From contig CBDCOW010000003.1 in assembly GCA_965219875.1 (NCBI GenBank), positions 1,165,892-1,229,891 on the forward strand: a stretch of 64,000 bases of DNA, in the 5' to 3' direction. Below, one piece after another: positions 16,203 through 63,049 of this stretch. The notes under the pieces are model-generated. The model was not told the origin of the DNA. It did no database searches and worked only from the letters and a program-made list of their open reading frames with translations. The stretch is from Dehalococcoidia bacterium (GTDB lineage Bacteria; Chloroflexota; Dehalococcoidia; SHYB01). Position 1 is the first letter of the stretch; each line of letters starts with the position of its first letter. Position numbers and translations under genes: made by a program.

Positions 16203-16213
16203 CGATAGTCTCG

Positions 16214-42694: not shown

Positions 42695-43648
42695 ATGGCC
42701 GTCGATGCACATGTCCATCTTTGGGCTAACGAGAATCTGCCGGAAGGTAATCGGCTGGTCTACGCTCGTTGGGCTGCTTTCGCCCGGCTACCGTACCGTG
42801 ATCCTTACGACATCCTACCGAGAGTAGGCCCAATAGCTTGGGACCCCGAGGGTGTCGACTTGATGAAGTACATGGACACCATGGGAATCGACAGGGTCGT
42901 GAACATGGTCGTCGATTGGGGCCTTGCCTGGGGCATGGAGCCGGAATGGGACGTCTACCAGGTGAACCAGCATGCCAGCTCCCTCATGCAGAAGTATCCC
43001 GGCAGATACTTCTACTGCGCGGGGGTGGATGCCCGGCGTGAGAACGCTGCCGACGTGCTGGAAAAGGCGGTCAAAGAATGGGGCGCCGTCGGGGTCAAGC
43101 TCCTGGTGGCCAACGGCTTCTCCCCTGACGACCGCATATGCTACCCGCTTTATGAGCTCGCCCGGGACCTGGACTTCCCCGTTGTCATTCACACCGGCGA
43201 AGGCGACGTGGCCTCGTATCCCAAGGAGGCGCACCCCTTCAACATGGCGGCGCCCGCCAGAGACTTTCCTACCGTCAAGTTCGTCGCCGCCCATACCGGC
43301 GGAGGACTGGACGGGGTGTGGCAAGAATGCCGGCAGATAGGTCTGCTTCACAACATCTACTTCGACCTCTCGGAGTGGCAGTTCGGCGTGGCGCCAACTG
43401 CCAGGTCACCGCACCGGGAAGAAGAGCTGTTCCGGGTGCTGCACTCGTTCCGCGACTGGTGGGGAGCGCACCGCATTATGTGGTGCACCGACTATATGAA
43501 GGGCCACTCCCTCGAGATCGACCGGTACTGGGTGGAGTTGTTCAAGGACCTGCCGGCGAGAGGCAAGAAGTACGGATATACCTTCACTCAGGAAGAAGCC
43601 GATCTCATGTTCGGCGGGGCTGCCGACCTGCTGTACGGCCTCGAGTAA
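42695..43648 (+). CDS. Amidohydrolase_2 family protein
   Basis: VDAHVH, VIHTGE, VAAHTGG, IMWCTDY. Confidence 0.9.
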   Translation: MAVDAHVHLWANENLPEGNRLVYARWAAFARLPYRDPYDILPRVGPIAWDPEGVDLMKYMDTMGIDRVVNMVVDWGLAWGMEPEWDVYQVNQHASSLMQKYPGRYFYCAGVDARRENAADVLEKAVKEWGAVGVKLLVANGFSPDDRICYPLYELARDLDFPVVIHTGEGDVASYPKEAHPFNMAAPARDFPTVKFVAAHTGGGLDGVWQECRQIGLLHNIYFDLSEWQFGVAPTARSPHREEELFRVLHSFRDWWGAHRIMWCTDYMKGHSLEIDRYWVELFKDLPARGKKYGYTFTQEEADLMFGGAADLLYGLE

Positions 43649-43708
43649 AAGGCCACGGTTACAGCGTAGGTAACCCCCAAGGGCCTCGCTCGGAGGCCGA
43701 CGGTGTGC

Positions 43709-44494
43709 CTACTGTTTCCGATCGGGGCTGTTCTCCCGCTGTGTGAAGGCTCGGGCGGCGTCTAGATTCTCCTGCGTCCAGCTCAGCTTCTCGTGCCACA
43801 GCTCAGCCAGGTCCCTGGCTTCCGACGGATGCGTGTACTGCGACTTCTTCACCAGAGCCTTGTAGGCCTGCACCGCCTCGGCTGAAAAGGACGTGATCTT
43901 CTCGGCCACCGCCAGAGCCTCTGGCATCAGTTGCTCTGGCTCAACCAGGCGGCTGACAAAGCCCCATTGGTAGGCCTGCTGGGCGTCGATATGGTCTCCG
44001 GTCAGGGCCAGATCGGCGGCGACGGCTTGAGGGTACAGGCGCGCCATCGTCCATACCGGACCCACGAGGTTCGCCTGGATCTCCATGTCCCCGAACAGCG
44101 CCGCTGTGCTGGCGATACGGATGTCGCAGTCCATCGCGATTCCCTGGCCTCCCCCGACGCAAAACCCGTTGATGGCGGCGATGAGCGGCTTCTCGATCTC
44201 GTGGGGCCCCGGCAAGCCCCATTTCTTCCAGTCCCGCTTGCCCAAGTAACGAGTGGGTTGGCTGCCCTGCTCCCTGTGCAACGCGCGCTCCTTCATATCG
44301 GCCCCGGCGCAGAAGCCCCGTCCGGCGCCGGTAACGACGGCCACCTGCACGGCATCGTCCTCTTTCACGTCCTCCCAGCATGCGCCCAGCTCTTCATGCA
44401 ACTGATTGTTGAGGGCGTTCAGTACCTGCGGTCGATTCATAGTGATGACTGCGACACCGTCTCGCTTTTCGTAGAGCACCGTTTCAAACGCCAC
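43709..44494 (-). CDS. Enoyl-CoA hydratase/isomerase family
   Basis: ITMNRPQVLNAL, FCAGADM, AAINGFCVGGG. GTG after AGGAGG. Confidence 0.9.
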   Translation of the reverse strand: MAFETVLYEKRDGVAVITMNRPQVLNALNNQLHEELGACWEDVKEDDAVQVAVVTGAGRGFCAGADMKERALHREQGSQPTRYLGKRDWKKWGLPGPHEIEKPLIAAINGFCVGGGQGIAMDCDIRIASTAALFGDMEIQANLVGPVWTMARLYPQAVAADLALTGDHIDAQQAYQWGFVSRLVEPEQLMPEALAVAEKITSFSAEAVQAYKALVKKSQYTHPSEARDLAELWHEKLSWTQENLDAARAFTQRENSPDRKQ

Positions 44495-44599
44495 CGCTGT
44501 CCTCCTGGTTTCCAACCTCGTTCCCCGTAAGACCGGAGCATGAGGCTTCGGCATGACTCGACCTCTCGCTGATAGCTCCGTCGAACACTGCTCAGGCCT

Positions 44600-45790
44600 T
44601 CAGACCACCCCGAGCTGGCGCAGCCGGACCAGTCCCTGGGAGCTGAACCCGAGCTCGCTCTGGAAGACCTGCCCGTTCGCCTGGCCTAGGAGCGGCGCTG
44701 GCCGGCGGACCCGCCAGGGTGTCTGCTCCATGATGAATGGCCGACCCGGTATCGTGACCCGTCCCAACACCGGATGCTCGACCTCCTCCCAGACCCCCCG
44801 CTCGTTGAAGTGGGCGTCCGCCAGGACATTCGCTGGGGTGAACATCGGACCGGAGGGGATCTTATGTTTTTGCGCCGCTTCCCAAGCCTCCTGCATGGTC
44901 CGCTCCAGGAGCCAGGGAAGAAAATACTCCGTGTTGAAGACGTATGAGTTGTCCGGCTTCGACCATTCCTCGATCTGGGAGAACCTGGGGTCGGAGAGGA
45001 GGTCCTGGCAACCCATCATTTCGAGCACCATCGGAAACCGAGCGCCCCTTCCCCAAATGTTGATGTAGCCGTCTTTGCAGGGCCAGGTCCCTGTAGCTAT
45101 TCCGGTGGCGCTAGGGGAGCGTCCGAACACCGTGCCCGTGTGTTGGTAGCCCAGGATAAAGGCGAGGCGGCGATCGATAGTCCCGGCCTGGGCCTCCAGG
45201 CGGGATACCTCCACCCAATCGCCTTCCCCCGTTCCCTCCGCCGTAGAGAAGGCAGTCAGGGCGGCCGTAGCCGCCAGCAGACCAGCCTGGTACGAAGCAA
45301 CGTCATCGCCGTACTTGAGCGGCTCCCATTCAGGGACGCCGGTGGCATGCATTGGACCGCCATGGCCAACGGCCACAATATCCTCGAGCTTCCAGTCTTC
45401 GAGGAGGCCCTCGCCGTATCCGGCTATCGAGACGACAACCAGACCCGGATTTCCCTCCCGAAGCTCCTCCCCGAGGACTCTCCCTCCGGAAGATTCGACA
45501 ACGATGTCGGTCCGCCGGGCCAGCCCCTTAAGCAGCTCGCGTCCGGTGCGGGTCTTCCAATCAAGCGTGATACCGGTCTTGTTGAAATTGAGGAAGAAGA
45601 AGGTGCCGGAGGCTTCCGGGTCGGGGTTATCGTTCGGGAACGGACCCCAGCGACGGGTGACGTCGCCGCCGGGCGGCCGTTCCACCTTCAATACGTCCGC
45701 CCCGAAGTCGCCAAGAAGGCGAGCGGCGAAGGGTCCTGGGACGCCTTCGCTCAGGTCCAGGACCAGCACTCCATCTAGGGCGGTCTCCAC
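44600..45790 (-). CDS. Class III CoA-transferase homolog lacking the catalytic Asp
   Basis: GPFAARLLGDFGADV, NFNKTG, RRPAPLLGQ. ASYQAG occupies the position of D(x)3G. Confidence 0.88.
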   Translation of the reverse strand: METALDGVLVLDLSEGVPGPFAARLLGDFGADVLKVERPPGGDVTRRWGPFPNDNPDPEASGTFFFLNFNKTGITLDWKTRTGRELLKGLARRTDIVVESSGGRVLGEELREGNPGLVVVSIAGYGEGLLEDWKLEDIVAVGHGGPMHATGVPEWEPLKYGDDVASYQAGLLAATAALTAFSTAEGTGEGDWVEVSRLEAQAGTIDRRLAFILGYQHTGTVFGRSPSATGIATGTWPCKDGYINIWGRGARFPMVLEMMGCQDLLSDPRFSQIEEWSKPDNSYVFNTEYFLPWLLERTMQEAWEAAQKHKIPSGPMFTPANVLADAHFNERGVWEEVEHPVLGRVTIPGRPFIMEQTPWRVRRPAPLLGQANGQVFQSELGFSSQGLVRLRQLGVV

Positions 45791-45799
45791 GTGCTCTCT

Positions 45800-46912
45800 C
45801 TATCGGTCGTCGGCCATCGTTGGGATGGGGAGCGGCGCGCTGGCCAGCAGGCGGCGATCTATGCTCTCAAGCGTCGGACGCCCGCTTTGGGCCATGGCCG
45901 TGTCCAGCTCATCTCGCAAGATATGCAATACGGCCCGCACGCCTGCTTCGCCGTGCACGGCCAGGCCCCATAAATACGGCCTGGCGATCGTGACCGCCCT
46001 CGCCCCCAGGGCAAGCGCTTTCAGCACATCGGTGCCTCGCCTGATGCCGCCGTCCAGGTAGACCTCGAGTTTGCCTTCGACTGCATCCACCACCTCGGGA
46101 AGGACCTCGACTGTTGAGAGGACCGAGTCCAGTTGCCTTCCCCCGTAGTTGGAGACGATCAAGCCCTTCACTCCATGCTCGAAGCATAACCGAGCATCTT
46201 CAGCGGTCATAATACCCTTTACGGTGAGTGGCAACGGTGAGTTAGCGGCCAGCCGGTCCAGGTCCGCCCAGGTTGCTGAGGCAGACTTCAGGTCCTTGAG
46301 CTGTCCTAACCCAGCATAGTTGGGAGAGGGCCGAACTGCCTTGCTGTTCCTTGAAGCCCGTTCCCGCTTTGGCGGTACCGGGACGCCCACCGACAAGCAG
46401 AGGGCGCTGTACCCGGCTTCGCTGGCCCGCTCAACGAAAGACTTCGTCAGGCCGGGGTCCCGATATGACACAAGCTCGAACCAGATCGGGCCCGTGGCCG
46501 CCTCGGCGATTTCTTCCATGGTGAAACTGGAGCTTCCACTGACAACGCCGATAGTTCCCATGGCGCCCGCCGCGCGCACCGTGGCCAACTCGCCATCGGG
46601 ATGAATCGCGCCCTGGAGTCCCGCGGGGCCCACTAAGACGGGAAAGTCCACGCTCTGTCCCAGGACCGTGGTGGAGACTCGCCGATCGGCAACGTCGACC
46701 AGAACTCGAGGGCGCAGTTGGATTGCACCGAATGCGTCACGATTCCGCCTCAGGGTGAGCTCGTCCAAGGCGCCACCGGCCACCGACTCGTATACGGCTC
46801 TAGGAAGAAGTTTTCGCGCCTCGGCTTCGAACTGAAAGAGGCTCGCCAGCGTCGCAGCGGAGCGTGTCCCTCGCTTGGGTCTCTTTTCGCCAGGTGTCAG
46901 CGGGCTCGGCAT
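45800..46912 (-). CDS. FMN-dependent alpha-hydroxy acid oxidase/dehydrogenase homolog with altered active site
   Basis: LRPRVLVDV, PLTVKG, VSNYGGRQLD, DGGIRRGTDVLKALALGA. Confidence 0.9.
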   Translation of the reverse strand: MPSPLTPGEKRPKRGTRSAATLASLFQFEAEARKLLPRAVYESVAGGALDELTLRRNRDAFGAIQLRPRVLVDVADRRVSTTVLGQSVDFPVLVGPAGLQGAIHPDGELATVRAAGAMGTIGVVSGSSSFTMEEIAEAATGPIWFELVSYRDPGLTKSFVERASEAGYSALCLSVGVPVPPKRERASRNSKAVRPSPNYAGLGQLKDLKSASATWADLDRLAANSPLPLTVKGIMTAEDARLCFEHGVKGLIVSNYGGRQLDSVLSTVEVLPEVVDAVEGKLEVYLDGGIRRGTDVLKALALGARAVTIARPYLWGLAVHGEAGVRAVLHILRDELDTAMAQSGRPTLESIDRRLLASAPLPIPTMADDR

Positions 46913-46989
46913 GAATTATCCAGCGACGGAAGGTTGTGCAGGGTACGGGCAAGGCAGAGGAGGGGCTAACAAGTGTCGAAGGGAGCAAG

Positions 46990-48039
46990 TTACATGAAGT
47001 AGGCCATGACTTGTTCACCGCACAGGCGCATCGACCTGGTAGCATGCTCCGGCGGCAGCACGCCGTAGTGGGTGAGCATAAGATTCCGCACGCCAGCCTC
47101 ACGTAACTGTGTCATCTGCTCTCTAACCCGCCCGGGCGAGCCGACGAACAGCTCTGGCGCAGCAGGATCGGGTGCCTTCCCATAGCTCGAGCGAGGCAAC
47201 ATGGCAGCCGGGCTTGCAACAGATGTTTCTGGCGAGTTCCATCGCCTCCGCGACTCCACTACGCGCTCGCGGCGCTTCTGTTCCGCGGGCAAGAACTCCT
47301 CCAGCGCTTCATCGTCTGTCTCCGCCACATAACAGTCCCGCCAGTCCCAGAGCTTGTCCAGGCTTCGCTGCACCGAGTCCTTGTCGAAGCCCGCGCCACG
47401 CATACTGTCCTCGTAGAGGCTTATCCTCTCCCGTGCATCGACCGCGGACCTACTGCGAATCAGCACCGGCCTGCCCAGTCGACCCATCTCCGCGATGGAA
47501 TCGCGCGTGAGGCAGGCTCGGTAAAGAGGGGGGTGGGGTTTCTGCCAGGGGACTGGCCGGATGCCTGGCATGGAAACGTCCCAGTAGTGACCATGGTGGT
47601 CTAGATTCTCCTGAGTCCAAGCCTTGACGAGGAGCTCCTCGGCCTCATCATTCTGGTCCGCGGCGATTTCAGACGTGGTCCCGAACCCTCGATACTCATA
47701 CTCGTTCCCGCTCGTCCCTCGGGCGAGGCCCACCATCAATCGTCCATGGCTCAGGTTGTCCAGCACTGAGGTTTGGATCGCGAGCCGGACTGGGTGATGC
47801 AACCCCGCCTGAACCACAGCAAAGCCCAGCCGCACCCGATGGGTCCGCCCGGCTACCGCCGCCGCAAAGACGATCGGGTCGGCATAGACGGTGTCGCCGT
47901 TGAAATGGTGCTCTCCGAACCACAAGGAGTCGTAGCCAAGCTCTTCTGCGAGCGTCGCTACCTGGAGCGCCTCGTCCATTCGCCGGGAATCCTGCGAGGG
48001 CTCGGGGCTGTTGTACAGAAGAAAGTAGCCGAACTTCAA
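46990..48039 (-). CDS. Luciferase-like (LLM class) flavin monooxygenase
   Basis: AEELGYDSLWFGEHHF, HPVRLA, GRLMVGLARG, PWQKPHPP. TTG after GGAGG. Confidence 0.92.
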   Translation of the reverse strand: MKFGYFLLYNSPEPSQDSRRMDEALQVATLAEELGYDSLWFGEHHFNGDTVYADPIVFAAAVAGRTHRVRLGFAVVQAGLHHPVRLAIQTSVLDNLSHGRLMVGLARGTSGNEYEYRGFGTTSEIAADQNDEAEELLVKAWTQENLDHHGHYWDVSMPGIRPVPWQKPHPPLYRACLTRDSIAEMGRLGRPVLIRSRSAVDARERISLYEDSMRGAGFDKDSVQRSLDKLWDWRDCYVAETDDEALEEFLPAEQKRRERVVESRRRWNSPETSVASPAAMLPRSSYGKAPDPAAPELFVGSPGRVREQMTQLREAGVRNLMLTHYGVLPPEHATRSMRLCGEQVMAYFM

Positions 48040-48069
48040 TGGCTCCTCCCGGTACGACAAGCGCATACT

Positions 48070-48108
48070 AGAATCAGCCCGGGCGGTTCGACCGCCCGGG
48101 CTGATTCT
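48070..48108. terminator. 18-bp perfect hairpin downstream of the SBP gene
   Basis: AGAATCAGCCCGGGCGGT-TCG-ACCGCCCGGGCTGATTCT. Confidence 0.75.
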
Positions 48109-48134
48109 TTGAGTCTGCTAGCCGCCGTTACGGA

Positions 48135-49889
48135 CTAGGCCGTCAATCTAATGTTTTCCCACTGAATGTCCGCGAGGCTTCCCGGCAACTCGAACCCTTC
48201 CACCCTCTTGGTCATCACGTAGGGCTCCGGGATGGTGATGGCGTACATGTAAGGCGGATCGCCTTCGACGCTGATCAGCTTGAGCGCCTCGCTGATCAAT
48301 TGGGCCTGCCTTTCGAAGTCGAACTCGGCCAGAATCTGGTCGCGCTTGGCGTAGTACGCCGGATTTTCGTAGGCGATGTTCGCACCGGTGCCTTCGGGAT
48401 CCATCTGGGTCAGGTAATAGACGCTATTGTTGTAGGCATCCACACCGACCTGTCCCATGATGTCGAACCACTCTTTGCCATCCCTGCGGAAGAGGTGGTC
48501 GACGAACAACGACAGGTCGATGCGCGCCGTGTCCACCTCGATGCCTACATCCTTCCACATTTTCTGGAGGGCGAAGCCGGTATCCTCAGCGGAGCCGCCA
48601 CGCCAGAACCGGTACGTCAAGCTGAAACGGGTGCCATCGCTACCTCTCGGATAGCCGGCTTCGTCGAGCAACTGATTGGCCTTGTCTACGTCAAAAGGAA
48701 TCGGCACGCTAGAGTCGTAGCCAATGCTGGTAGGCAGCGTCGGCGAGGAAACGGGCGTCGCAAAGCCTCTCCAGATAGTGCTGGCAATGGTCTCACCGTC
48801 GGCCGCATAGATGAGGGCCTGACGGACACGCACGTCATTCAGAGGTCCGCCCGACTTCTTGTGTTTTCCGATAGCTAAAAGGTGCGCCAGGGACCGGGCG
48901 TTGGGCGCCTGTACGACGAAGCCGTCGTTCTGCAGAGCTACCAGGTTCGCCGGCTCGATCTGTGTATGCGATATGTCCGCGTTGCCCGACCGAAGAGCGG
49001 CCTCCATAGTTGCCGGTTCCCTGATCACGTTCGCTTCGATCCTCTCGAGGAACGGCTTGCGGAATGCGTGCGGCTGGCCCGTTAACTCGGCAGTCCACTT
49101 CACCCTGAACTCGAACTCGGTGAAGCGATATGGTCCGCTTCCGATGGGCTTGGCCACAAACTCCTCGGCCCCTACGGACTCGAAGTAGTCTTTCGGGAGA
49201 ATCCGGAGGTGTTGACCCTTAGATGGAATCAACACATCGGGCTTTGCGGTCTTGAACTCCAGGGTGACGTCGTCCACCGCTATCGCCTCGGCCACCGTAC
49301 CGAAGTGTCGGCGGCCGGCAAGCTTCTCGGTGAGGATCCTGTTCATCGAGAAGGCAGCGTCTTCCGCGGTCAGGTCCTCTCCGTCATGGAACTTCACGCC
49401 CTCGTGGAGCTTGAAGCGCCAGGTCGTTGCATCGGGCGCTTCCCATGACACCGCCAGGCTAGGCTGGGGAATACCATCAGCGTTGAGGAGCAGGAGATTG
49501 TCATAGACCGTCCGCAGCGTGCCCATCCAGGCGACGGTGAAGTGGGGGTCGTTTGGAGGCCCTCCGAATGCAAGGTGGCGCATGACTTGCTGTACGGCGG
49601 TCGTCGGAGTCGGCGGGGGTGTCGCCGTCGGAGTCGGCGCTGCCGTCGCCGTCGGAGCCGTCGTCGCCGGCATGGCCGTGGGAGCCGGAGCCTCACCCGC
49701 CGCCGGTCCTTCAGGGCCCGCCGGCCCTTGAGCGCCCGCCGGTCCTTGAGCGCCCGCCGGTCCTTCGGGGCCCGCCGGCCCTGCTGGCCCAGGCGGTCCT
49801 TGCGTCCCGCCGCATGCCGACGCGACAAGCGCGATGACTATGCCTACGGCGAATACTGCCATCAATTTGCGGGAAATAAAGAGAGCCAT
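48135..49889 (-). CDS. Family 5 ABC solute-binding lipoprotein with collagen-like Gly-X-Y and PT-rich linkers
   Basis: Lipobox ASAC, GPPGPAGPAGPEGPAGAQGPAGAQGPAGPEGP, VKFHDG, PIGSGPY. ATG 49889 after AGGAGG. Confidence 0.9.
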   Translation of the reverse strand: MALFISRKLMAVFAVGIVIALVASACGGTQGPPGPAGPAGPEGPAGAQGPAGAQGPAGPEGPAAGEAPAPTAMPATTAPTATAAPTPTATPPPTPTTAVQQVMRHLAFGGPPNDPHFTVAWMGTLRTVYDNLLLLNADGIPQPSLAVSWEAPDATTWRFKLHEGVKFHDGEDLTAEDAAFSMNRILTEKLAGRRHFGTVAEAIAVDDVTLEFKTAKPDVLIPSKGQHLRILPKDYFESVGAEEFVAKPIGSGPYRFTEFEFRVKWTAELTGQPHAFRKPFLERIEANVIREPATMEAALRSGNADISHTQIEPANLVALQNDGFVVQAPNARSLAHLLAIGKHKKSGGPLNDVRVRQALIYAADGETIASTIWRGFATPVSSPTLPTSIGYDSSVPIPFDVDKANQLLDEAGYPRGSDGTRFSLTYRFWRGGSAEDTGFALQKMWKDVGIEVDTARIDLSLFVDHLFRRDGKEWFDIMGQVGVDAYNNSVYYLTQMDPEGTGANIAYENPAYYAKRDQILAEFDFERQAQLISEALKLISVEGDPPYMYAITIPEPYVMTKRVEGFELPGSLADIQWENIRLTA

Positions 49890-50154
49890 CTTCCGGCCTC
49901 CTGAGTGCGGGCGCGCAGCGCGCGTCGTCCCCGAATCTGAGCCCCACGCGATAGATTCATCCGAGGTTGGGGCAACCTTGCTCGCATCTAGTAACATAGC
50001 CCAGAACCCTTGTCAAGTGAAGCGACAATCGACAGCACATCCCGAAACGGGTATCTTGTGGGTTGACTAGGGAGGCGGACGCTCTTGGAAGCCTCAACCG
50101 GTGTCGATGCCCTGGTTGCGGAGCGTCGCCGGGGCCACGGAGGGCACGGGAATC

Positions 50155-51294
50155 ATGAAGCGCAACCGGGAGAGAATTCTTACCACGCACACCGGCAGTC
50201 TTCCCCGTTCCACCACGATGATCGCCTTACTGCGGGAGCAGGAGGAGGGTCGGCTTCAGAGTGCGGATGTCTTCGACGCAGAGGCCCGTTCGGCTGTCGC
50301 AGAAGCGCTGCGCCGGCAGTATGAAGTGGGGCTGGACATCGTCAACGATGGCGAGCAAGCGAAGGTCGACTACACCACCTACGTCAAGCACCGCCTCAAT
50401 GGCTTTGAAGGGCAGAGCGAATCCCTCACCGATCCCGATACTGTCGAGTTTCCCGAATGGGCCGCCATGCAACAGATGTTCGGCGCGCCGTTTCGCAGAC
50501 GCCCAGCTTGCGTCGGGCCTATCTCTTGGAAAGATTGGGATGCGGTGGAGAGGGATATTCAAGTCCTCAAAGAGGCGTCGGCAGGACAACAGGATCGCCA
50601 GGTCTTCATGACCTCGGCCTCCCCTGGTCAGATCGCTCGATTCCTCCAGAACCGTCATTATCCTGACGACGAGTCTTATCTCTACGCGTTGGCCGACGTT
50701 ATGAAACGCGAATACCAGGCCATCGCCGACGCCGGGTTCGTGCTCCAACTCGACTGTCCCGACCTGGCTTTGGGCAGACATACGCAGTTCAGTCATCTGA
50801 CCCTGGAGGAGTTCAGGAAGGTCGCCGAACTCCACGTGGAGGTCCTCAACTATGCTGTGGCAGACATCCCGCCGGAGAGGATGCGGATGCATGCATGTTG
50901 GGGCAGCGGCGGTGGCCCCCATCATCGGGATGTCCCACTCAAAGGCATCGTGGACGTGGTGCTCAAGGCGCGACCTTCAGGCTTTGCGTTCGTGGGCGCT
51001 AACGGGCGCCATGAGCACGAGTGGAAGGTTTGGAAAGAGGTGACGTTACCAGAGGGAAAGGTGATTATTCCGGGCGTGATCGACAACACGACGAACATCA
51101 TAGAACACCCCGAAACGGTCGCGGAGCGGATTCTGCGCTACGCCGGCGTTGTTGGGCCGGAGAACGTCATCGCCGGCGTCGATTGCGGCTTCGGCACCTT
51201 CGCAGACCGGGTCCAGGTGGACTCTCAGATCGTTTGGCTCAAGCTCCGCTCGTTGGTCAAAGGGGCGGAGATCGCATCAGCGGAGCTCCAGTGA
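50155..51294 (+). CDS. Cobalamin-independent methionine synthase-like / epoxyalkane:CoM-transferase-like Zn enzyme (catalytic domain only)
   Basis: TTHTGSLPR, NDGE, LQLDCPD, HACWG, PGVID, DCGF. Confidence 0.88.
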   Translation: MKRNRERILTTHTGSLPRSTTMIALLREQEEGRLQSADVFDAEARSAVAEALRRQYEVGLDIVNDGEQAKVDYTTYVKHRLNGFEGQSESLTDPDTVEFPEWAAMQQMFGAPFRRRPACVGPISWKDWDAVERDIQVLKEASAGQQDRQVFMTSASPGQIARFLQNRHYPDDESYLYALADVMKREYQAIADAGFVLQLDCPDLALGRHTQFSHLTLEEFRKVAELHVEVLNYAVADIPPERMRMHACWGSGGGPHHRDVPLKGIVDVVLKARPSGFAFVGANGRHEHEWKVWKEVTLPEGKVIIPGVIDNTTNIIEHPETVAERILRYAGVVGPENVIAGVDCGFGTFADRVQVDSQIVWLKLRSLVKGAEIASAELQ

Positions 51295-51334
51295 GACCCC
51301 AACCGTCATCGCGCGGAGAGAAGGCCAGGATCGG

Positions 51335-52138
51335 ATGAAGAGCGGCTATCTCGACGTGCCGGACGGGCGGATTCATTATCGAGCAACCGGGTCCGGGGAC
51401 CCCCTCTTGCTGCTCCACCCGAACGCTTCGTCGTCAGAGGCGTTCTCGAAGGTCATGGCTTTGCTCGCCGGTCGATGCTACGCCGTGGCCCTCGATTTCC
51501 CGGGTTATGGGGGCTCGCCTCCGCCAGCCGAGCCCTACCGCGACATCGTCGACTACGCTCTGAGTGCATTTCATGTGCTCGACGCTCTCGGGATCCAGAG
51601 AGCCAGCGTGATCGGTGACCATACCGGAGCCACCGTAGCGGTCGAGATGGCGGCGTCGAGCCCGGGCCGGGTGGACAGGCTCGTGCTCTTTGGATGTCCC
51701 TACTGGAAGGACGAAGCGGCTCGGTTGAAGGCGCAACAGGGGCCCCTGTTCAGGCCTACCGAGGTCCAGGGAGACGGGTCTCACATCGCAAACGTCTGGG
51801 CGCACTACGAGCGCCAACTCCAGGGAGCCCCCCCTGAAGACATCCAGCGCGCCGTCGTCGACGCTCTCTTGTCTCAACTGTCGCCGTGCCGAGGCCAGGA
51901 GGCCCATTACGCTCTCCTCCGTTACGATACCCCGGCCCGCCTCCCGATGGTCCAGTCCCCAACCCTTGTGCTTACTGCTCCGGGGGACGGGTTCTTTCGA
52001 TGGGCCGGCGAGGTCGAGGAGCGACTTCCCAGGGCCAAGGTGCAGGTGATTCCAGATACCAATGGGCACGCGAGCCGCTTGCGGCCCCGCGAGTTCGCTG
52101 ACGCAGTCGTCGAGTTTCTCAACGACCCCGGCGTTTGA
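51335..52138 (+). CDS. Alpha/beta hydrolase-fold protein (GDHTG elbow)
   Basis: LLLLHPN, ALDFPGYGGS, VIGDHTGA, VDRLVL. Confidence 0.85.
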   Translation: MKSGYLDVPDGRIHYRATGSGDPLLLLHPNASSSEAFSKVMALLAGRCYAVALDFPGYGGSPPPAEPYRDIVDYALSAFHVLDALGIQRASVIGDHTGATVAVEMAASSPGRVDRLVLFGCPYWKDEAARLKAQQGPLFRPTEVQGDGSHIANVWAHYERQLQGAPPEDIQRAVVDALLSQLSPCRGQEAHYALLRYDTPARLPMVQSPTLVLTAPGDGFFRWAGEVEERLPRAKVQVIPDTNGHASRLRPREFADAVVEFLNDPGV

Positions 52139-53268
52139 ACAGGTGTGGGGCTGAACGCTCGGCGGAGGTATGGTCGATCAGTACGCTCAAAGTTGGAGTC
52201 GTTGGCGGAGGCGCGGGCGCAAGATGGGGCGCTCGCGTGCACCTGCCCGTGCTCGCCAGCCTGCCCGAGTTTGAAATCACCGCCGTCTGCACTGCCCATG
52301 AGGAGTCGGCCGCGGAAGCCGCCCAGCGCTTCGGCGTTCCCCATACCTTCACCGATTACCGCCAGCTGGTCGCTCACCCCGATGTCGACCTGGTGGCCAT
52401 TGCGGTGCGGGGCAGCCTCCACCACCCGGTTGCGCTGGCGGCCCTCGACGCTGGGAAGCACGTCTTCTGCGAATGGCCCTTGGCAATGGACCTCAACCAG
52501 GCGATGGAGATGCAAGGTCTCGCCCTCAAAAACGGCCTTCACCACTGTCTGGGACTACAGGCCAGGACGTCTCCGGAGGTCATGTACCTCAAGGAGCTTG
52601 TGGACGGCGGCTACATCGGCAAGCCCCTGACCTTCGCCAGCTCATTCCTCAACGGCACCGCCCTGCGCGGCCGGGATTCGTCGATGATGTATCTTCTCAA
52701 GGAGGAAGGAGGCGGTAGCGATCTGCTCATTGGGATGGGGCACACGCTCGATGTCCTGCAATACGTTCTTGGCGACATCGCCACACTCAGCGGCAAAGCG
52801 GCCACCCTGGTCCGACGCGAAGTGCTCACGGATACCGGCGAAGAGGTCGATGTCACCTCCGCGGACAACGTCGCGCTCGTCGCCGAGCTGCGCAACGGGG
52901 CCATGGGCGTCATACAGAGCAGCAGGACGGTGAGCCCCGGGGAGGGTTGGCGGCTTATCGTCTCGGGGACCGAGGGCAAGCTTGTGGCGTCGTCGCCAAG
53001 AGCGCCCCAGATGCTGCCTATCCGACTAACCGGTACGCGAAAGGGATCTAGCTCGCCGGACACGCTCGATCCGCCCGAGCGATTCAACTGGGTGAGCGAG
53101 GTTTCCCGCGACAGCGAGGGCTTTAACACAGCCCAGCTGATGAGGAGGCTCGGTCGCGCGATAGGCGAGGGCGTGGAGGTGACGCCGAACTTCGAGGATG
53201 GCGTTCGTCTCCACGGGGTTCTCGAGGCCATCTCGGCGTCGCGAGACGGTTGGGTGAGCCTGGACTAG
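52135..53268 (+). CDS. Gfo/Idh/MocA family NAD(P)-dependent oxidoreductase
   Basis: KVGVVG...AVCT, VDLVAIAV, AGKHVFCEWPLA, GHTLD. The start is uncertain (TTGA overlap). Confidence 0.9.
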   Translation: MNRCGAERSAEVWSISTLKVGVVGGGAGARWGARVHLPVLASLPEFEITAVCTAHEESAAEAAQRFGVPHTFTDYRQLVAHPDVDLVAIAVRGSLHHPVALAALDAGKHVFCEWPLAMDLNQAMEMQGLALKNGLHHCLGLQARTSPEVMYLKELVDGGYIGKPLTFASSFLNGTALRGRDSSMMYLLKEEGGGSDLLIGMGHTLDVLQYVLGDIATLSGKAATLVRREVLTDTGEEVDVTSADNVALVAELRNGAMGVIQSSRTVSPGEGWRLIVSGTEGKLVASSPRAPQMLPIRLTGTRKGSSSPDTLDPPERFNWVSEVSRDSEGFNTAQLMRRLGRAIGEGVEVTPNFEDGVRLHGVLEAISASRDGWVSLD

Positions 53269-53285
53269 TCATCGAGGAGGCCTCA

Positions 53286-54281
53286 GTGCGTAGCATCGAT
53301 ATCCATGCGCATCACTTTCCGCGGACCTACTTCAGCGCAGTCGATGCCGGCCGCGACTGGCACGGGAGCACGCTCGAGCGAGACACCGAGGGCAACGAGT
53401 TTCTTGTATCGGGGCGGGCCCGTCTGCCTATTCGTCCCGTTCATCGCTGGAGCGCGGAGGAGCGTGTCCAGGCGATGGACAAGATGGGCGTCGACATCCA
53501 TGTCCTCTCGACGGCCCCCTTTCTCTACAGGTACGATGCTCCCCTCGAGGTCTGCTGGGCGTCATGCCGGGACGCCAACGACGATGTGGCCGAGCTGGTC
53601 CGCACCCACCCGGACCGCTTCGCCGGGTTGGCCCTTCTCCCTATGCAGGACGTGAAGGCCAGCATCGATGAGCTTGAACGGGCGGTGCGCAAGCTGGGCT
53701 TGAAGGGTGCGATCATCGACGACCACGTCAACGGCCGCACCTACGACGACCCGTCGTTCCTCCCATTTTTTCAGGTAGCCGAGCGGGTTGGAGCCCTACT
53801 CTTTCTCCACCAGGGATCGGAGACGATGGTGCTGTCGCGCAACCCTCGCTATTTCCTGCCGAATACCATCGGCAACCTCGTCGAGCGGACCGTGAGCTTC
53901 GCCAGCCTGGTCTTCGGCGGCGTAATGGAGAAGTTCCCTAACTTGACGATATGTCTCGCCCACGGCGGGGGATACACCTGCTACGGAGTCGGCCGGCTGG
54001 ACCGCGGTTGGGAAATACGGCCCGATGCCCGCGTTAATGCTCCGCAACCCCCCAGTGCCTATCTTCGCCGCTTTTATTACGACTGCCTGACCCACAGCGA
54101 GGCGGCCCTGCGATTCCTCGTGGACAGCGTCGGGGCCGACCGCGTGATGCTCGGCACCGACTGGCCCGCGGACATGGGCATCGATTTGCCGGTCTCCTGG
54201 ATCATGGACCAGGCAAGCCTCACGCAAGACGAGAAAGAACTCATTCTCTGGAAGAACCAGGAGCGCCTACTTGGGCTTTAG
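53286..54281 (+). CDS. Amidohydrolase_2, ACMSD-like decarboxylase
   Basis: IDIHAH, LFLHQ, CLAHGGG, FYYD, VMLGTDWP. Confidence 0.88.
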   Translation: MRSIDIHAHHFPRTYFSAVDAGRDWHGSTLERDTEGNEFLVSGRARLPIRPVHRWSAEERVQAMDKMGVDIHVLSTAPFLYRYDAPLEVCWASCRDANDDVAELVRTHPDRFAGLALLPMQDVKASIDELERAVRKLGLKGAIIDDHVNGRTYDDPSFLPFFQVAERVGALLFLHQGSETMVLSRNPRYFLPNTIGNLVERTVSFASLVFGGVMEKFPNLTICLAHGGGYTCYGVGRLDRGWEIRPDARVNAPQPPSAYLRRFYYDCLTHSEAALRFLVDSVGADRVMLGTDWPADMGIDLPVSWIMDQASLTQDEKELILWKNQERLLGL

Positions 54282-54293
54282 GAAGGAGGCGGC

Positions 54294-55091
54294 TCAGCGG
54301 TCGCGGAAGACCGGGTCCCGCTTTTCCAAGAAGGCGCGGACGCCTTCCCGATGGTCCTCGGTGTCGTGGCAGATACCGTTGCTATAAACCTCGTACTGGC
54401 ACGCCTGCTCCAGTGTCGCGCTGAGCCCCGTGTAGGTAATTCTCTTGATGAATTCGAGGGCCACGGGCGGGCCCTTCGCAATCTCGGAGGCCAGGCTTGT
54501 GGCCTCGGCAACGACCTGGTCGTCCGGCACGACACGGCTCACGATCCCCATCCGCGCCGCCTCTTCCGCGGCAATCATCTTCCCGGTGTACATCAGCTCG
54601 AAGGCGTTCGCCACGCCGGCGATGCGAGGCAGAAGCCAGGTGCAGCCTCCGTCCGGCACCAGGCCTCGCTTGACGAAGCTCGCGGTAAACCGGGCGCTCT
54701 CAGCGGCAATTCGAGTGTCACAGGCCATCGCCAGCGAGAAGCCAGCTCCGGCGGCAACCCCGTTCACCGCAGCGATGGTCGGGGTCTCGAAATCCTTGAG
54801 GCGCAATATCCAGGGCACTTCCGTTGGGCGGAACCGGTCGGTGACGTCGCTTTTCGAGTAGTTGTCGGACGACCCTGCTCCAGGCAGGGTTTCGACGTCG
54901 GCTCCAGAGCAAAAGCCTCGTCCCGCCCCGGTAACGACCAACGCCCTCGCCTGTTGCTCCCTCACCTCTTCCAGCGCGACAACAAACTCCTCTCGCGTCT
55001 CCTGGTTGATTGCGTTGAGACGGCCTGGTCGGTTCAGGGTCAGTACCGCCACGGGGCCATCAAATTCTAGGATCAACGTGGAATAGCTCAT
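54294..55091 (-). CDS. Enoyl-CoA hydratase/isomerase, PaaG-like
   Basis: LNRPGRLNA, FCSGAD, GAGFSLAMACD, RGLVPDGG (Asp in place of the two crotonase Glu). Confidence 0.88.
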   Translation of the reverse strand: MSYSTLILEFDGPVAVLTLNRPGRLNAINQETREEFVVALEEVREQQARALVVTGAGRGFCSGADVETLPGAGSSDNYSKSDVTDRFRPTEVPWILRLKDFETPTIAAVNGVAAGAGFSLAMACDTRIAAESARFTASFVKRGLVPDGGCTWLLPRIAGVANAFELMYTGKMIAAEEAARMGIVSRVVPDDQVVAEATSLASEIAKGPPVALEFIKRITYTGLSATLEQACQYEVYSNGICHDTEDHREGVRAFLEKRDPVFRDR

Positions 55092-55158
55092 CGACCACCT
55101 CCTGTTGGGAGTCGGATGGAACGGCCCCCTCCCCTCGCCCTCAGGGAACCGCGAACGG

Positions 55159-56493
55159 CTATGGGATGTCTGCTGGATAGTCCAGGCTGATGTGCCCAGC
55201 CTGTTCAAGTTCGGCGTATTTCTGGTCGTCGATGCCAAGAAGGTCCTTGTAAGCGTACTGATTGTGCTCTCCCAGTCTACAAGGGGGGAGACGAAGGTGA
55301 TTCGGGGTGCTCGCCATTCGCCATAGGGGGCCGCAATACAGATGGGAGCCGCTCTCGTTGTGGGTCAAAGGCTCAAAGAAGCCCCGGGCTTGCAAATGAG
55401 GGTCCCGTAGAAGATCGGCCTCGGAGGATACGGGGGCGGCGGCAACGCCTGAGGCCTGCAAGACTTCGGCCGCGTTTTTCGGCGGCCGCTCTCGGGTCCA
55501 GTCTGAGATCAGTGGGTCGAGCTGGTCCTGGTTCTCCCAGCGGGACAGGGCGTCGGCGAAGCGAGAGTCTTCGGCGAGCTTCGGCAGTCCGATCGCCTGA
55601 CAAAGCTTCCCGAACTCCTCGTCGGTGCCCACGGCAAGCACCACCCATTCGTCCGTCCCGGCACAAGGGTAGCAACCGTGAGGGGCCATCCACTCGTGAC
55701 GGTTCCCCATGGGGCTTCCGATGCGACCGTTGAGCGTGTAGTCCAACAGGGAGCCCGCCATGAACGGAAGGAAATTCTCTGCCTGCGGAATCTCGATCAG
55801 TTGGCCGCGACCGGTGCGACGGCGATGGCGGAGGGCCAGGAGTATCGACAGGGCGCCCGAGATGCCGGCAGCGGCATCGGGGACCACTGTCTCGCCCCGC
55901 AGTGAGGGGTCCGAGTCCTTATAACCCTGGCGCCACCCCAGTCCGACCACCCCTTCTATGTGGTACCCGAGCGCCCGGTACTCACGGTAGGGCCCCGATA
56001 GCCCGAAACCAGGCATGCGCAGATAGACCAGCGTGGGATTCGCCTGACGCAGGGCTTCCCAACTGACGCCCAGTTTGTCCATGGTAGCTGCCGGGTTGTT
56101 CTCGATCACCACATCCGAGATGGCAACCAGGCTGAAAAACTGTTCTTTCCCTTGTGGAAGTCGCAAGTCCACGGTCATGGAGAGCTTGTTGCGACCGTGG
56201 GAGTTGAACATCGGGGTCCGGTTCCATGGCCGGTCCCCCGGGTCCCAGTTGGGATAGGCATGGCTTACCATGGGTTGCTCTCGGATGAGCTCTCGGGACG
56301 GCCGCAAAGTACGCTCCGCCGACCGCGTCGATGGGGATGGGACCTGGCACGACTCCACCCTCAGGACCTCGGCCCCCCAGTCCGCGAGGATCATGGTGCT
56401 GTAGGGACCCGCCCAAGCGATGGTCAGGTCCAGCACCCGGATTCCATGGAGAGGAAGTTGTTTAATGGAGTTTTCCAAGCCCAGGCGACGCAT
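55159..56493 (-). CDS. Class III CoA-transferase (catalytic Asp present)
   Basis: IRVLDLTIAWAGPY, NSHGRNKLS, VPDAAAG, PCRLGEHN. The start is uncertain (56493 or 56478). Confidence 0.9.
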   Translation of the reverse strand: MRRLGLENSIKQLPLHGIRVLDLTIAWAGPYSTMILADWGAEVLRVESCQVPSPSTRSAERTLRPSRELIREQPMVSHAYPNWDPGDRPWNRTPMFNSHGRNKLSMTVDLRLPQGKEQFFSLVAISDVVIENNPAATMDKLGVSWEALRQANPTLVYLRMPGFGLSGPYREYRALGYHIEGVVGLGWRQGYKDSDPSLRGETVVPDAAAGISGALSILLALRHRRRTGRGQLIEIPQAENFLPFMAGSLLDYTLNGRIGSPMGNRHEWMAPHGCYPCAGTDEWVVLAVGTDEEFGKLCQAIGLPKLAEDSRFADALSRWENQDQLDPLISDWTRERPPKNAAEVLQASGVAAAPVSSEADLLRDPHLQARGFFEPLTHNESGSHLYCGPLWRMASTPNHLRLPPCRLGEHNQYAYKDLLGIDDQKYAELEQAGHISLDYPADIP

Positions 56494-56704
56494 CGCCTTC
56501 AACTGGGTGGGGAGAGCCCGTTGTGCGCGCACTGGCCGACGCCGACAAGCAACCGGATTATCAATCGGCTCCAGATACGTGTCAACCAGAGAAACTCCGG
56601 CCACCATTTCGCGGCCGGAGTATGATACGGCGGAGGATCGACGGCGATAGACAGGTATTCCGTCACGTGTGCCCCGAGGTGGGCGTTGAAGAGCGGAGGG
56701 GACC

Positions 56705-58072
56705 ATGTCTGTGACGCAAGCCATCGCGCAGTGGACTACGACGACCCGGTATGCGGACCTCCCGCCAGAGGCGGTGCAGGTGGTGAAACGGATGGGCCTC
56801 GATACCCTCGGAGTATCCCTCGCGGCCGTGACCGAACCGGCAGGCAGGATCATCGTCGACTACACACGGGAGGCGGCCGGCTCGCCTGAGGCGAGCGTCA
56901 TCGGTGGATGCTACAGGACCAGCACGGCCGACGCCGCCTTTGCAAACGGCGTGCTGGCGAACGCCCTCGACTTCGACGACACGTGGTTCCCCTTCGGCCA
57001 CCCGAGCTGCTGTGTATTCCCGGCGACGATGGCCCTCGGTGAGAAACTGCAGTCCTCGGGCAGAGAGTTGATCGAGGCGTACCTGGTGGGCCTGGAAATA
57101 TGGGGCAAGCTGCGGCAGGGCATCACAGACGACGGCCCCTCCGGCTTCGCCACTGTGGGCATATTCGGAGTCCTGGGAGCGGCCGTGGCAGCCTCCAAGC
57201 TTCTTCATCTCACCGCTGGAGAGACCGTGGTGGCGCTCGGCATCGCGGCCTCTCAAGCCGGTGGTCTCGGTAAGAGCACCGGCACGATGACCAAGCCCTA
57301 CCACGCGGGCAACTCCGCCGGCGGGGGCATCCGAGCGGCTCTGCTTGCCCAAGCGGGATGGACTGCCGACCCCGAGCCCTTGGAGGGCCCCATGGGGTTG
57401 CTGGAGCTGGCAATGGGCCCCGGCCGGTTCGACCCAAGCCGCACCATCGACGCTCTGGGCAACCCGTTCCATGTTCTGGAGCCCGGCATCGGGGTCAAGA
57501 AATACCCCACTTGCTATTTGAACCATCGAGCCATCGACGCGCTCCTCAAGCTCGTGAACAGGCATGACATCCGCACGCACCAGGTCGAACAGGTGACCGT
57601 CGCGGTGCCCAACGAGACCTGGATGAATGACCCGAACCCCGAAAATGGACTGAGGGCCAGGCTGAGCCTTCAGCATAATCTGGCCGAGGTCTTGTGCAGG
57701 GGGAACGTCACCATCGAGAGCTTCGACAACGACCGGGTGCATTCCAGGGAGATACGGGCGTTGATGGCTCGGGTTGTGATGAAGGTAGACTCGTCCATGG
57801 CCTCCGGATACAGGCAGGTGCGGAACCCCCTCACCTTGCGGCTGAAGGACGGCCGAGAACTCACCGAGCAGGTGGACGTCCCCCACGGAGATTGGGACGA
57901 CCCGCTGAGTGAGCAGGAGGTGCTCGCGAAATTCCGTGACAACGGACGGCGGCGGTTGTCCGGGGAAGAGTGTGAGCGCACTGCCCAACTCATGCTCCAC
58001 CTGGATGAACTGGACGACAATCTTGAGATCATGGCCATCAGCTCCGGGATCCAGGCCCAGCTGACGGTCTAG
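56705..58072 (+). CDS. MmgE/PrpD family protein
   Basis: AAFANG..ANALDFDD, GHPS, TKPYHAG, KKYPTCY, KFRD. Confidence 0.9.
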   Translation: MSVTQAIAQWTTTTRYADLPPEAVQVVKRMGLDTLGVSLAAVTEPAGRIIVDYTREAAGSPEASVIGGCYRTSTADAAFANGVLANALDFDDTWFPFGHPSCCVFPATMALGEKLQSSGRELIEAYLVGLEIWGKLRQGITDDGPSGFATVGIFGVLGAAVAASKLLHLTAGETVVALGIAASQAGGLGKSTGTMTKPYHAGNSAGGGIRAALLAQAGWTADPEPLEGPMGLLELAMGPGRFDPSRTIDALGNPFHVLEPGIGVKKYPTCYLNHRAIDALLKLVNRHDIRTHQVEQVTVAVPNETWMNDPNPENGLRARLSLQHNLAEVLCRGNVTIESFDNDRVHSREIRALMARVVMKVDSSMASGYRQVRNPLTLRLKDGRELTEQVDVPHGDWDDPLSEQEVLAKFRDNGRRRLSGEECERTAQLMLHLDELDDNLEIMAISSGIQAQLTV

Positions 58073-58100
58073 ACTGCGGTCTGGTGATGGAGGTGTCATC

Positions 58101-58604
58101 GTGTCGATTGATCGACTGAGAAGTCTAGCGTGGGAAGAGATAAGCGAGGGGGACGACGTTCCGGCGGTGATCTTCCCGCTCGATACCGTACGCCTTGTGC
58201 TGCTGGCGGCAGTGTGCCGGGACTACGACCCACAGCACTTCGATCATGGGTACGCCGAGCGCATCGGCAATCCGGCGCCCAACATGAACTCGTCATGCCA
58301 CGGAGGCATCCTGTCTCGGATGCTCACCGATTGGGCCGGACCGGCGGCCAAGGTCAGGCGCCTCAAGTTCAACGTGCTCCAGATGGCGTACCCCGGGGAC
58401 ACTCTGTGCGCCACCGGCAAAGTGACGAAGAAGTACGAGGACAACAATCAGCACATGGTCGACATCGAGGTTATGATGGTCAACAACACTCCTCACTTCT
58501 CGATGTTGCCGGTGCAATACGCCTTGCGGGGGACGGCCACTCTCATCCTTCCGACGGCCAACGAGGCCAAGGCGGCAGGGATTCGAAGCGGGGCAAACTC
58601 GTGA
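58101..58604 (+). CDS. MaoC-family dehydratase
   Basis: RDYDPQHFD..YA, LTDWAG, YPGDTL. Confidence 0.85.
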   Translation: MSIDRLRSLAWEEISEGDDVPAVIFPLDTVRLVLLAAVCRDYDPQHFDHGYAERIGNPAPNMNSSCHGGILSRMLTDWAGPAAKVRRLKFNVLQMAYPGDTLCATGKVTKKYEDNNQHMVDIEVMMVNNTPHFSMLPVQYALRGTATLILPTANEAKAAGIRSGANS

Positions 58605-59149
58605 AGCTCGGCGAAATCGATTCCGGTATTAAGGCACTCATCGGTCTCACGGCCGAATGGACTGTTCCCGACGAGGTGGAAAAGGGCGCCATTCGCCAAT
58701 GGTGCGAAGTCTTCGAGGACGGAAATCCGGTCTACACCGACGAAGCCGTTGCGAAACAGATGGGCTATCGCACGGTGATTTCTCCCACCGCGAAGATACT
58801 GGGTTGGGTCAGGCAGCCCATGTGGCCGCCCGCACCCCTGTCCTGGCCGGCCAAGGCCGGGACGCATCTCATCGAGACGGCGCCGCTGGGCACGAAGTTT
58901 GAGGCAGGGGTGGTCCAGAGCTGGGACCTGGAATGGCTTGGCCCGTTGTATCCGGGAGACCTCATCACGGAAAAGGAGACCATCACCGACATCTCGCCGC
59001 TAAAGCGGACTCGACTCGGAGTCGGGCACTTCGCCACGGTGGCGCGAGAGTTCAGGAACCAGGACGGCGATGTGGTCCAGAAGCTTACCGTCGTCTTCTT
59101 CAAGTACGTCTCCGAGGAACAGGCAAAAGCCGAGGGCGTCGAGATCTAG
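58601..59149 (+). CDS. FAS1-like/MaoC N-terminal-half hot-dog protein
   Basis: IRQWCEVFEDGNPVYTD, PLYPGD, FRNQDG. GTGA overlap with the upstream gene. Confidence 0.82.
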   Translation: MKLGEIDSGIKALIGLTAEWTVPDEVEKGAIRQWCEVFEDGNPVYTDEAVAKQMGYRTVISPTAKILGWVRQPMWPPAPLSWPAKAGTHLIETAPLGTKFEAGVVQSWDLEWLGPLYPGDLITEKETITDISPLKRTRLGVGHFATVAREFRNQDGDVVQKLTVVFFKYVSEEQAKAEGVEI

Positions 59150-59177
59150 CGCGACAACCGGGGCCAAGAGAGGGCCA

Positions 59178-60614: not shown

Positions 60615-60615
60615 G

Positions 60616-61806: not shown

Positions 61807-61821
61807 CTGAGGTCCGCCTCG

Positions 61822-62943: not shown

Positions 62944-63019
62944 CACTGATCTCCCGGACCCCCACTGCTCCGCACAACAAGGGAGCCAACGGCCTGCGCA
63001 CGGATAGCGGCGCCATTGG

Positions 63020-63049
63020 AGTCTACGCCGCCGATTTTTCTCACGTCAA
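63020..63049 (-). promoter_or_regulatory. Sigma70-type promoter for the acyl-CoA dehydrogenase pair
   Basis: TTGACG-N18-TAGACT on the minus strand. Confidence 0.5.

Follow-up and report, generated by a model that had tools for sequence, protein, structure and literature searches.

A glycolate oxidase-fold flavoprotein with a rewired active site in an accessory catabolic island of Dehalococcoidia

We analysed a 64,000-nucleotide stretch of DNA (the window) from the genome of a Dehalococcoidia bacterium (G000; contig CBDCOW010000003.1), in which a gene of the FMN_dh family (PF01070; FMN, flavin mononucleotide) lies third in a string of five co-directional and closely spaced genes. An initial annotation, made from the sequence, had described the product as an FMN-dependent alpha-hydroxy-acid oxidase homologue with a systematically rewired active site. 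This protein, P0001, is a member of PF01070 by both fold and profile. It scores 387 bits against a cut-off of 24.9, covering positions 1–348 of the 350 in the profile, and an AlphaFold2 model made with 73 homologues as input has a predicted local distance difference test score (pLDDT) of 91.2 and a predicted template modelling score (pTM) of 0.89. The model shows a (beta/alpha)8 barrel and, at its N terminus, a helical cap, and it superposes on glycolate oxidase. Its top Foldseek match is 1GOX (E = 1.5e-41; TM scores 0.87/0.92), and the closest structures are spinach glycolate oxidase and human HAO1, with TM scores of 0.87–0.95 and 42–43% sequence identity. The coordinates of the gene, of the residues discussed below and of the neighbouring genes are collected in Table 1.

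Residue equivalences were taken from a HMMER alignment of P0001 to spinach glycolate oxidase (1GOX). The four motifs quoted in the initial annotation are all present in the translation, namely YESVAGGA (starting at residue 41), WFELV (144), LSVG (173) and SNYGGRQ (254), and both translation and alignment agree with its account of an intact open reading frame (ORF) that keeps the FMN motifs VKG (231), DGGIRRGTD (287) and ARP (310) together with the arginine of RER (within KRER, 182). Two further departures had been overlooked. The FMN-phosphate motif ARP itself deviates from the canonical GRP (Gly308 to Ala310), at a position where glycine is invariant in 118 close homologues, and loop 4, which forms the active-site lid, is 14–22 residues shorter than in the closest canonical relatives and lacks about 17 residues relative to 1GOX. 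The reference FMN-binding set (Ser106, Lys230, Ser252, Asp285-Gly-Gly-x-Arg289 and Gly308-Arg309) is otherwise represented in P0001 by Ser125, Lys232, Ser254, Asp287-Gly-Gly-Ile-Arg291 and Arg311, and we infer that FMN binding is retained.

The part of the site that handles the substrate is altered far more extensively. An experimental survey found seven residues (Tyr24, Tyr129, Asp157, Arg164, Lys230, His254 and Arg257) to be conserved family-wide, with at least one of the seven missing in 8 of 10 homologues that lacked oxidase activity (PMC8491902). Of these family catalytic or substrate residues, P0001 keeps three (Arg164, Lys230 and Arg257) and replaces four: Tyr24 by Ser, Tyr129 by Val, Asp157 by Gly and His254 by Tyr. 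Trp108 and Thr155 align with Ser127 and Ser174, respectively. The changes at the Trp108 and Tyr24 positions do not count towards the novelty of the protein, because Ser or Gly at the former and Phe at the latter are usual already in its nearest canonical subfamily. With the histidine gone, the PROSITE-type signature of the family, S-N-H-G-[AG]-R-Q, is broken.

Judged by its defining catalytic residues and signature, P0001 is not a canonical 2-hydroxy-acid oxidase or dehydrogenase of the kind represented by GOX, HAO, LOX, LldD, MDH, Fcb2 and Hmo, and an annotation as such would be unwarranted. Scores against functionally defined NCBIfam models all fall below their cut-offs: 250.7 against 376 and 224.6 against 550 for the two LldD models, 198.8 against 645.5 for L-lactate oxidase, and 247.6 against 470.85 for MftD (TIGR03966), the second-best NCBIfam match. 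Type 2 isopentenyl-diphosphate isomerase (TIGR02151), which also belongs to PF01070, is matched in its C-terminal part only (49.1 against 281.3 bits), and nitronate monooxygenase (PF03060) only locally, over residues 232–314, with 24.7 bits against a gathering cut-off of 28. The Pfam scan of P0001 returned no match to a flavin-reductase family (PF01613 Flavin_Reduct and relatives), a result which still leaves room for a reductase-like activity.

Table 1. Positions in the window of the FMN_dh gene, of key codons within it, of the surrounding genes and of the island. ABC, ATP-binding cassette; LLM, luciferase-like monooxygenase; CoA, coenzyme A.
Feature	Position	Strand	Basis or remark
Rewired FMN_dh (PF01070) gene; P0001, 370 aa	45800..46912	(-)	Uninterrupted ORF, profile match, model
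Ser43, codon TCG; replaces Tyr24 (Phe in nearest canonical subfamily)	46784..46786	(-)	Orthologue TCA, synonymous
Glu146-Leu147-Val148; replaces Gln127-x-Tyr129 (flavin N3/O2 ligand; substrate-hydroxyl ligand)	46469..46477	(-)	Alignment
Gly176, codon GGC; replaces Asp157 (partner of catalytic His)	46385..46387	(-)	Canonical relatives GAC/GAT
Arg183; kept (= Arg164)	46364..46366	(-)	CGG; AGG in orthologue
Gly203/Gln204 junction; site of 14–22-residue loop-4 lid deletion	46301..46306	(-)	Alignments; same deletion in P0002
Lys232; kept (= Lys230, flavin N1/O2 ligand)	46217..46219	(-)	Alignment
Tyr256, codon TAC; replaces catalytic His254	46145..46147	(-)	Canonical CAC (His), one transition away
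Arg259; kept (= Arg257, carboxylate ligand)	46136..46138	(-)	Alignment
Family 5 ABC solute-binding protein; N-terminal linker collagen-like (Gly-Pro-Ala); first gene of string	48135..49997	(-)	PF00496, 219 bits; syntenic in L001
LLM; 77-bp gap upstream of FMN_dh	46990..48066	(-)	PF00296, 176 bits; 90% identical L001 orthologue in same position
Family III CoA-transferase; 9 bp downstream of FMN_dh	44600..45790	(-)	PF02515, 247 bits
Enoyl-CoA hydratase/isomerase; last gene of string	43709..44554	(-)	PF00378, 154 bits
Amidohydro_2 metal hydrolase/hydratase, convergent; leftmost island gene with L001 orthologue	42695..43648	(+)	PF04909, 84 bits; 96% identical
Accessory catabolic island, at least 21 kb, extending past window end	42695..64000		DNA comparison with G009 and G006

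This combination of residues is far from chance variation, as judged from its distribution among homologous sequences. A search of 5.8 billion proteins recovered P0001 itself on 23 contigs, two near-identical cluster members and then an orthologue of 85% identity (P0002; locus L001), with nothing further until identity has fallen to about 62%. The source of P0002 is a Dehalococcoidia metagenome-assembled genome (MAG; G009) of the same family as the window's genome and of another genus; the gene is absent from six genomes of the window's own genus. The 118 proteins that are 57–63% identical to P0001 all keep the Gln, Tyr/Phe, Thr, Asp and His residues, except for one aberrant member discussed below. 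More widely, His254 is present in 147 and Asp157 in about 145 of 150 representatives of 50%-identity clusters (HMMER, 1.84 billion cluster representatives), and SNHG plus [GAS][RHK] in 355 of 374 fetched proteins. No further SNYGG-type carrier emerged from a word search on residues 236–280, in which 479 candidates were scored and which divergent carriers may escape, nor from scanning GTDB genomes and JGI metagenomes with back-translated patterns; a degenerate DNA pattern run across 401 Chloroflexota genomes gave six matches beyond the window's genome, all of them out-of-frame chance matches. The searches together thus yielded only P0002 and near-identical copies of P0001. With this two-lineage distribution the rewiring is private to one very small clade, and so is not the marker of a widespread subfamily. 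The initial annotation had proposed collecting SNYGG homologues to see whether the four changes go together: they do co-occur in P0002, and carriers outside the two lineages did not appear. The searchable literature yielded no description of a natural His-to-Tyr member of the FMN_dh family.

We looked among the canonical homologues for an evolutionary intermediate and found none that shares more than 9 of the 64 residues derived in the clade. P0003 shares Ser43, Val44 and Gln100 with the clade yet retains the catalytic set. This protein (L002:8001-9110), from the same metagenome, is the closest canonical relative at 62% identity; it keeps the His, the Asp and Tyr129, carries Gln where the carboxylate ligand Arg164 would stand and Ser where Tyr24 would, and represents another specificity variant.

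Comparison of the two lineages indicates that the altered site has been maintained. The Nei-Gojobori ratio of nonsynonymous to synonymous substitution rates (dN/dS) between P0001 and P0002 is 0.153 (dN 0.081, dS 0.533), inside the range of 0.05–0.23 obtained for six neighbouring genes in the same genome pair. Both lineages share every rewired residue and the same lid deletion, and Lys232, Arg183, Arg259, DGGIRRG and Ser125 are kept in both, with synonymous-only codon differences at Ser43 (TCG/TCA), Ser174 (TCG/TCC) and Arg183 (CGG/AGG). Differences between the two proteins are scarce in columns that are at least 95% conserved among canonical members (13 of 165, against 48 of 205 elsewhere; Fisher p = 6e-5). 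The catalytic face, which we defined ourselves from the secondary structure of the model as the C-terminal strand ends plus the beta-alpha loops, is no more variable between them than the rest of the protein (15 of 117 against 46 of 253).

The history of the clade before this split looks different. In a maximum-likelihood tree P0001 and P0002 form a clade with support of 100/100 nested in a Chloroflexota subfamily, on a stem of 0.65 substitutions per site with tips of 0.05 and 0.15; the terminal branches of other close members are about 0.01–0.4. On the stem, 33 of the 165 conserved columns changed in both proteins, and 22 of these 33 lie on the catalytic face (odds ratio (OR) 4.4, p = 3e-4). 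Read from these alignments, the changes came in a burst at the active site with purifying selection thereafter, a pattern that is not that of a dying gene; the remodelling is clean and under selection. The initial annotation had argued for a different reaction or a flavin-binding non-enzyme and not random decay. Its case against decay is borne out by the dN/dS value, the synonymous codon differences, the avoidance of conserved columns and the enrichment on the stem. It had also set private changes together with a dN/dS near 1 against its own idea, and of these the changes are private indeed while the ratio is far from 1.

One other member of the Chloroflexota subfamily has an aberrant site. 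P0041 (L113:9001-10197) reads SNRADTQ, has Asp157 changed to Asn and Arg164 to Gln, and has lost Arg257. It is a singleton on a contig of 4x coverage rich in transposases, and is probably a decaying copy or the product of sequencing errors. With both arginines lost it illustrates undirected loss, in contrast to P0001.

The FMN_dh gene is flanked by the LLM and family III CoA-transferase genes that the initial annotation had named, and Pfam matches agree with both assignments. No convincing intrinsic terminator was found between the five genes of the string, and the gene order is the same in G009. The best solved relatives of the CoA-transferase are succinate-hydroxymethylglutarate and formyl-CoA transferases. 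Among about 80 other FMN_dh loci there was no case with two or more of an LLM, a CoA-transferase and a hydratase within 10 kb, and the two contexts retrieved among canonical relatives (P0003 and P0025) are unrelated neighbourhoods. The rewired gene hence has the look of a recruited paralogue. The genome has just one other full FMN_dh gene (G000:C1:741940-743148; L003:1429-2637), which is canonical, long-looped and LldD/MftD-like, with SNHGGRQ, LTVD and WFQIY. Across its 3.76 Mb it carries 92 PF00296 LLM matches and just two PF01613 flavin reductases, an LLM abundance that amounts to a SAR202-style expansion of paralogues in a Dehalococcoidia lineage from soil.

The string sits in a segment that is 84–85% identical at the nucleotide level to G009:C2:517068-538447 from 42.7 kb up to the window's right-hand end, whereas G009 has no comparable similarity to the window backbone at 1–16 kb. 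Conversely, a genome of the window's own genus (G006) is 97% identical over window positions 1–16225 and lacks the segment. We therefore regard the catabolic cluster as an accessory island exchanged between genera, and the comparison points to inter-genus horizontal transfer. Genes for a large helicase, a C5 methylase, an IS110 transposase, helix-turn-helix (HTH) proteins and a recombinase fragment lie to the left of the island. To the right of the string, the island encodes a MetE-like protein, an alpha/beta hydrolase and a GFO/IDH/MocA oxidoreductase, then a second Amidohydro_2 protein, a second hydratase and a second CoA-transferase, and further a PrpD/MmgE protein, MaoC/hot-dog proteins, an Amidohydro_1 protein and two acyl-CoA dehydrogenases.

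FMN-dependent 2-hydroxy-acid oxidases are a textbook case in the debate between hydride and carbanion mechanisms, in which the catalytic histidine is treated as indispensable. Reasoning from the established residue roles in glycolate oxidase and flavocytochrome b2, canonical His-mediated proton abstraction should be impossible in P0001, an anionic and likely carboxylate substrate should still be bound, and the pocket is predicted to be wider and more open. Since the proton-abstracting residues are replaced and the lid is shortened, the reaction is probably something other than ordinary 2-hydroxy-acid oxidation. The reading we favour, with a probability of roughly 0.45, is that P0001 is a neofunctionalised FMN oxidoreductase which uses the triose-phosphate isomerase (TIM) barrel of glycolate oxidase on a bulkier carboxylate intermediate of the island pathway. 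The string would take up a compound through the solute-binding protein, oxygenate it with the LLM and then carry out CoA activation and hydration, and hydride would pass between N5 of FMN and the carboxylate intermediate of this pathway. Tyr256 might act as proton acceptor or donor, its pKa lowered by Arg259 and Lys232, or else the reaction could be base-free, comparable to flavin amine oxidation. The change of Asp to Gly176 might clear space for the larger tyrosine ring, and Glu146 might retune the flavin. On this reading the variant had a single origin, probably from a canonical Chloroflexota paralogue, and then spread across two Dehalococcoidia genera via the catabolic island.

It is unlikely that P0001 is an ordinary L-2-hydroxy-acid oxidase or dehydrogenase in which Tyr256 serves as the base, like the tyrosine of short-chain dehydrogenases, with the other changes shifting the preference for substrate size. 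Such an enzyme would fit with the retention of both carboxylate arginines, of Lys232 and of the FMN site, with nearest relatives (about 60% identity) that are canonical enzymes, and with the variation that the Tyr24 and Trp108 positions show already in active subfamilies. Against this stand the near-universal retention of His254 and Asp157 among the cluster representatives, the loss of the transition-state-stabilising Tyr129 and of the lid, scores far under every NCBIfam equivalog cut-off, and the fact that inactive homologues in the survey mostly miss at least one of the seven residues (PMC8491902). A purely non-catalytic role, in which the protein would bind flavin or another ligand for structural, sensing or scaffolding purposes in the pathway, is more doubtful again: the loss of four of the seven residues under purifying selection with an intact fold is what a pseudoenzyme would show, yet the two lineages strongly conserve the remodelled catalytic face itself, neither Lys232 nor either arginine has been lost, and the gene lies within a string of enzyme genes. 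We know of no pseudoenzyme in the FMN_dh family, which counts further against this idea. Least credible is a decaying gene, an incipient pseudogene with neutral active-site losses. The restriction of the changes to a tiny clade, the single-nucleotide nature of most of them and the position of the gene on a mobile accessory island would all suit decay, whereas the low dN/dS accumulated over a dS of 0.53, an ORF intact in two genera and on 23 contigs, the synonymous-only differences at key codons and the avoidance of conserved columns by between-lineage substitutions all contradict it.

The initial annotation had suggested that the gene might supply or recycle flavin for the adjacent LLM, and this found no specific support. 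In such an arrangement the open, base-free site would admit NAD(P)H or a second flavin and deliver reduced flavin to the LLM. The FMN_dh gene does lie directly downstream of and co-directional with the LLM gene in both genomes, a flavin reductase gene was not found in the part of the island within the window, hydride transfer from NAD(P)H requires no base, the lid is shortened, and the Gln-to-Glu change beside the flavin pyrimidine should lower the redox potential. However, with 92 LLM genes in the genome an LLM neighbour is weak evidence; two conventional PF01613 reductases are encoded elsewhere; and, because the LLM/FMN_dh pairing is confined to one shared island, there is no independent co-occurrence of the two. 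A nucleotide-binding motif is not evident in P0001, and keeping the two carboxylate arginines would go unexplained. We therefore place this role on a level with the pseudoenzyme, and allow a similarly small residual share for reactions beyond those considered here.

Several points weigh against an oxidoreductase of new specificity and temper the strength with which we propose it. All of the key changes except Tyr to Val lie one nucleotide step from the canonical codon, so that a coordinated rewiring would need few events, and the boundaries of the catalytic face used in the enrichment are our own. Only two lineages exist, which leaves site-wise conservation with little statistical power. The location of Tyr256 relative to flavin N5 is assumed by homology, and the tyrosine could be a mere poor substitute in an enzyme of lowered activity. 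We tried to identify the pathway from the neighbouring genes and rejected the attempt, as PDB and NCBIfam matches are family-level only; the best structural match of the LLM, 7BIP, is uninformative, as the papers that mention it deal only with a poly(acrylic acid) monooxygenase and a rishirilide polyketide pathway. The weight of the case is limited by its confinement to two MAG lineages.

P0001 has its fold, Pfam family, FMN phosphate and ribityl motifs and equivalents of Lys230, Arg164 and Arg257 in common with the FMN-dependent (S)-2-hydroxy-acid oxidases of spinach and human (1GOX and 2NZL), and differs from them as follows: His254 to Tyr, Asp157 to Gly, Tyr129 to Val, Tyr24 to Ser, Gln127 to Glu, Trp108 to Ser and a shorter loop 4. 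Its closest relatives, of 57–63% identity and the same length class and phylum, form an uncharacterised canonical Chloroflexota/Dehalococcoidia subfamily (P0003–P0120) that JGI labels '4-hydroxymandelate oxidase'. Like P0001 they have a residue other than Tyr at the Tyr24 position, in their case Phe, and a small residue, Gly or Ser, in place of Trp108; unlike P0001 they retain Gln-x-Tyr, Thr-x-Asp, the His and a full lid in all but P0041. Arg164, which P0001 keeps, is replaced by Gln in P0003 and P0041. The 4-hydroxymandelate oxidase Hmo and its Y128F and Y128C variants (5ZZP, 6A0V and others) share the fold at 37–38% identity. Removal of the Tyr129-equivalent hydroxyl in Y128F reportedly shifts the outcome towards oxidative decarboxylation, according to its depositors' work; P0001 naturally lacks this tyrosine, as in Y128F, and in addition lacks the His-Asp pair, whereas the Hmo variants retain the catalytic His. 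The pre-mycofactocin synthase MftD (TIGR03966) is a family member that catalyses oxidative deamination instead of 2-hydroxy-acid oxidation, and thus demonstrates that the FMN_dh scaffold can be retargeted. P0001 scores far under the MftD cut-off and has no mycofactocin genes nearby.

We regard it as possible, if doubtful, that P0001 is the first natural member of the glycolate/lactate oxidase fold to do without the His-Asp proton relay, with a new type of reaction that arose in a recent, short burst of active-site changes within a mobile catabolic island. Were this so, candidate reactions would include hydride transfer without a base, the donor being an amine or a C-H group, tyrosine-assisted ene or desaturase chemistry on a carboxylate, and NAD(P)H-driven flavin reduction feeding the neighbouring LLM. 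A naturally selected protein with Tyr/Gly for His/Asp, in which Val also replaces the transition-state Tyr and the lid is cut down, would amount to a natural experiment on the scaffold deprived of its base. It would also offer a dated example of neofunctionalisation, with a burst and then stasis, on a catabolic island that moves horizontally among the poorly understood, paralogue-rich soil Dehalococcoidia. It also carries a warning for annotation, in that such proteins receive names such as '4-hydroxymandelate oxidase' or 'alpha-hydroxy acid oxidase' by homology.

Some further observations concern the island and its genes. The recombinase fragment, a weak zinc beta-ribbon match without a catalytic domain, and two small HTH genes (41075-41872, 40562-41333) lie roughly 0.8 kb away from the island's left end, and could be left over from the element that brought it in. 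The 5' end of the solute-binding protein gene (about 49600-50020, minus strand) encodes a signal or anchor segment followed by the Gly-Pro-Ala collagen-like linker, with a weak Pfam Collagen match. Dozens of copies of the DNA of this N-terminal segment, 70–85% identical, are scattered over this genome and related ones, which suggests that the leader and linker are a module common to many solute-binding protein paralogues.

The island holds two triads of CoA-transferase, enoyl-CoA hydratase and Amidohydro_2 genes in equal arrangement (42695-45790 and 53250-56853). A recent duplication was considered and ruled out: the two are just 20–33% identical and are therefore old paralogous modules. The longest ORF of the second CoA-transferase (55159-56853, minus strand) would encode 564 residues; since the Pfam match begins at residue 135 and the G009 orthologue has 370 residues, the true start is probably internal.

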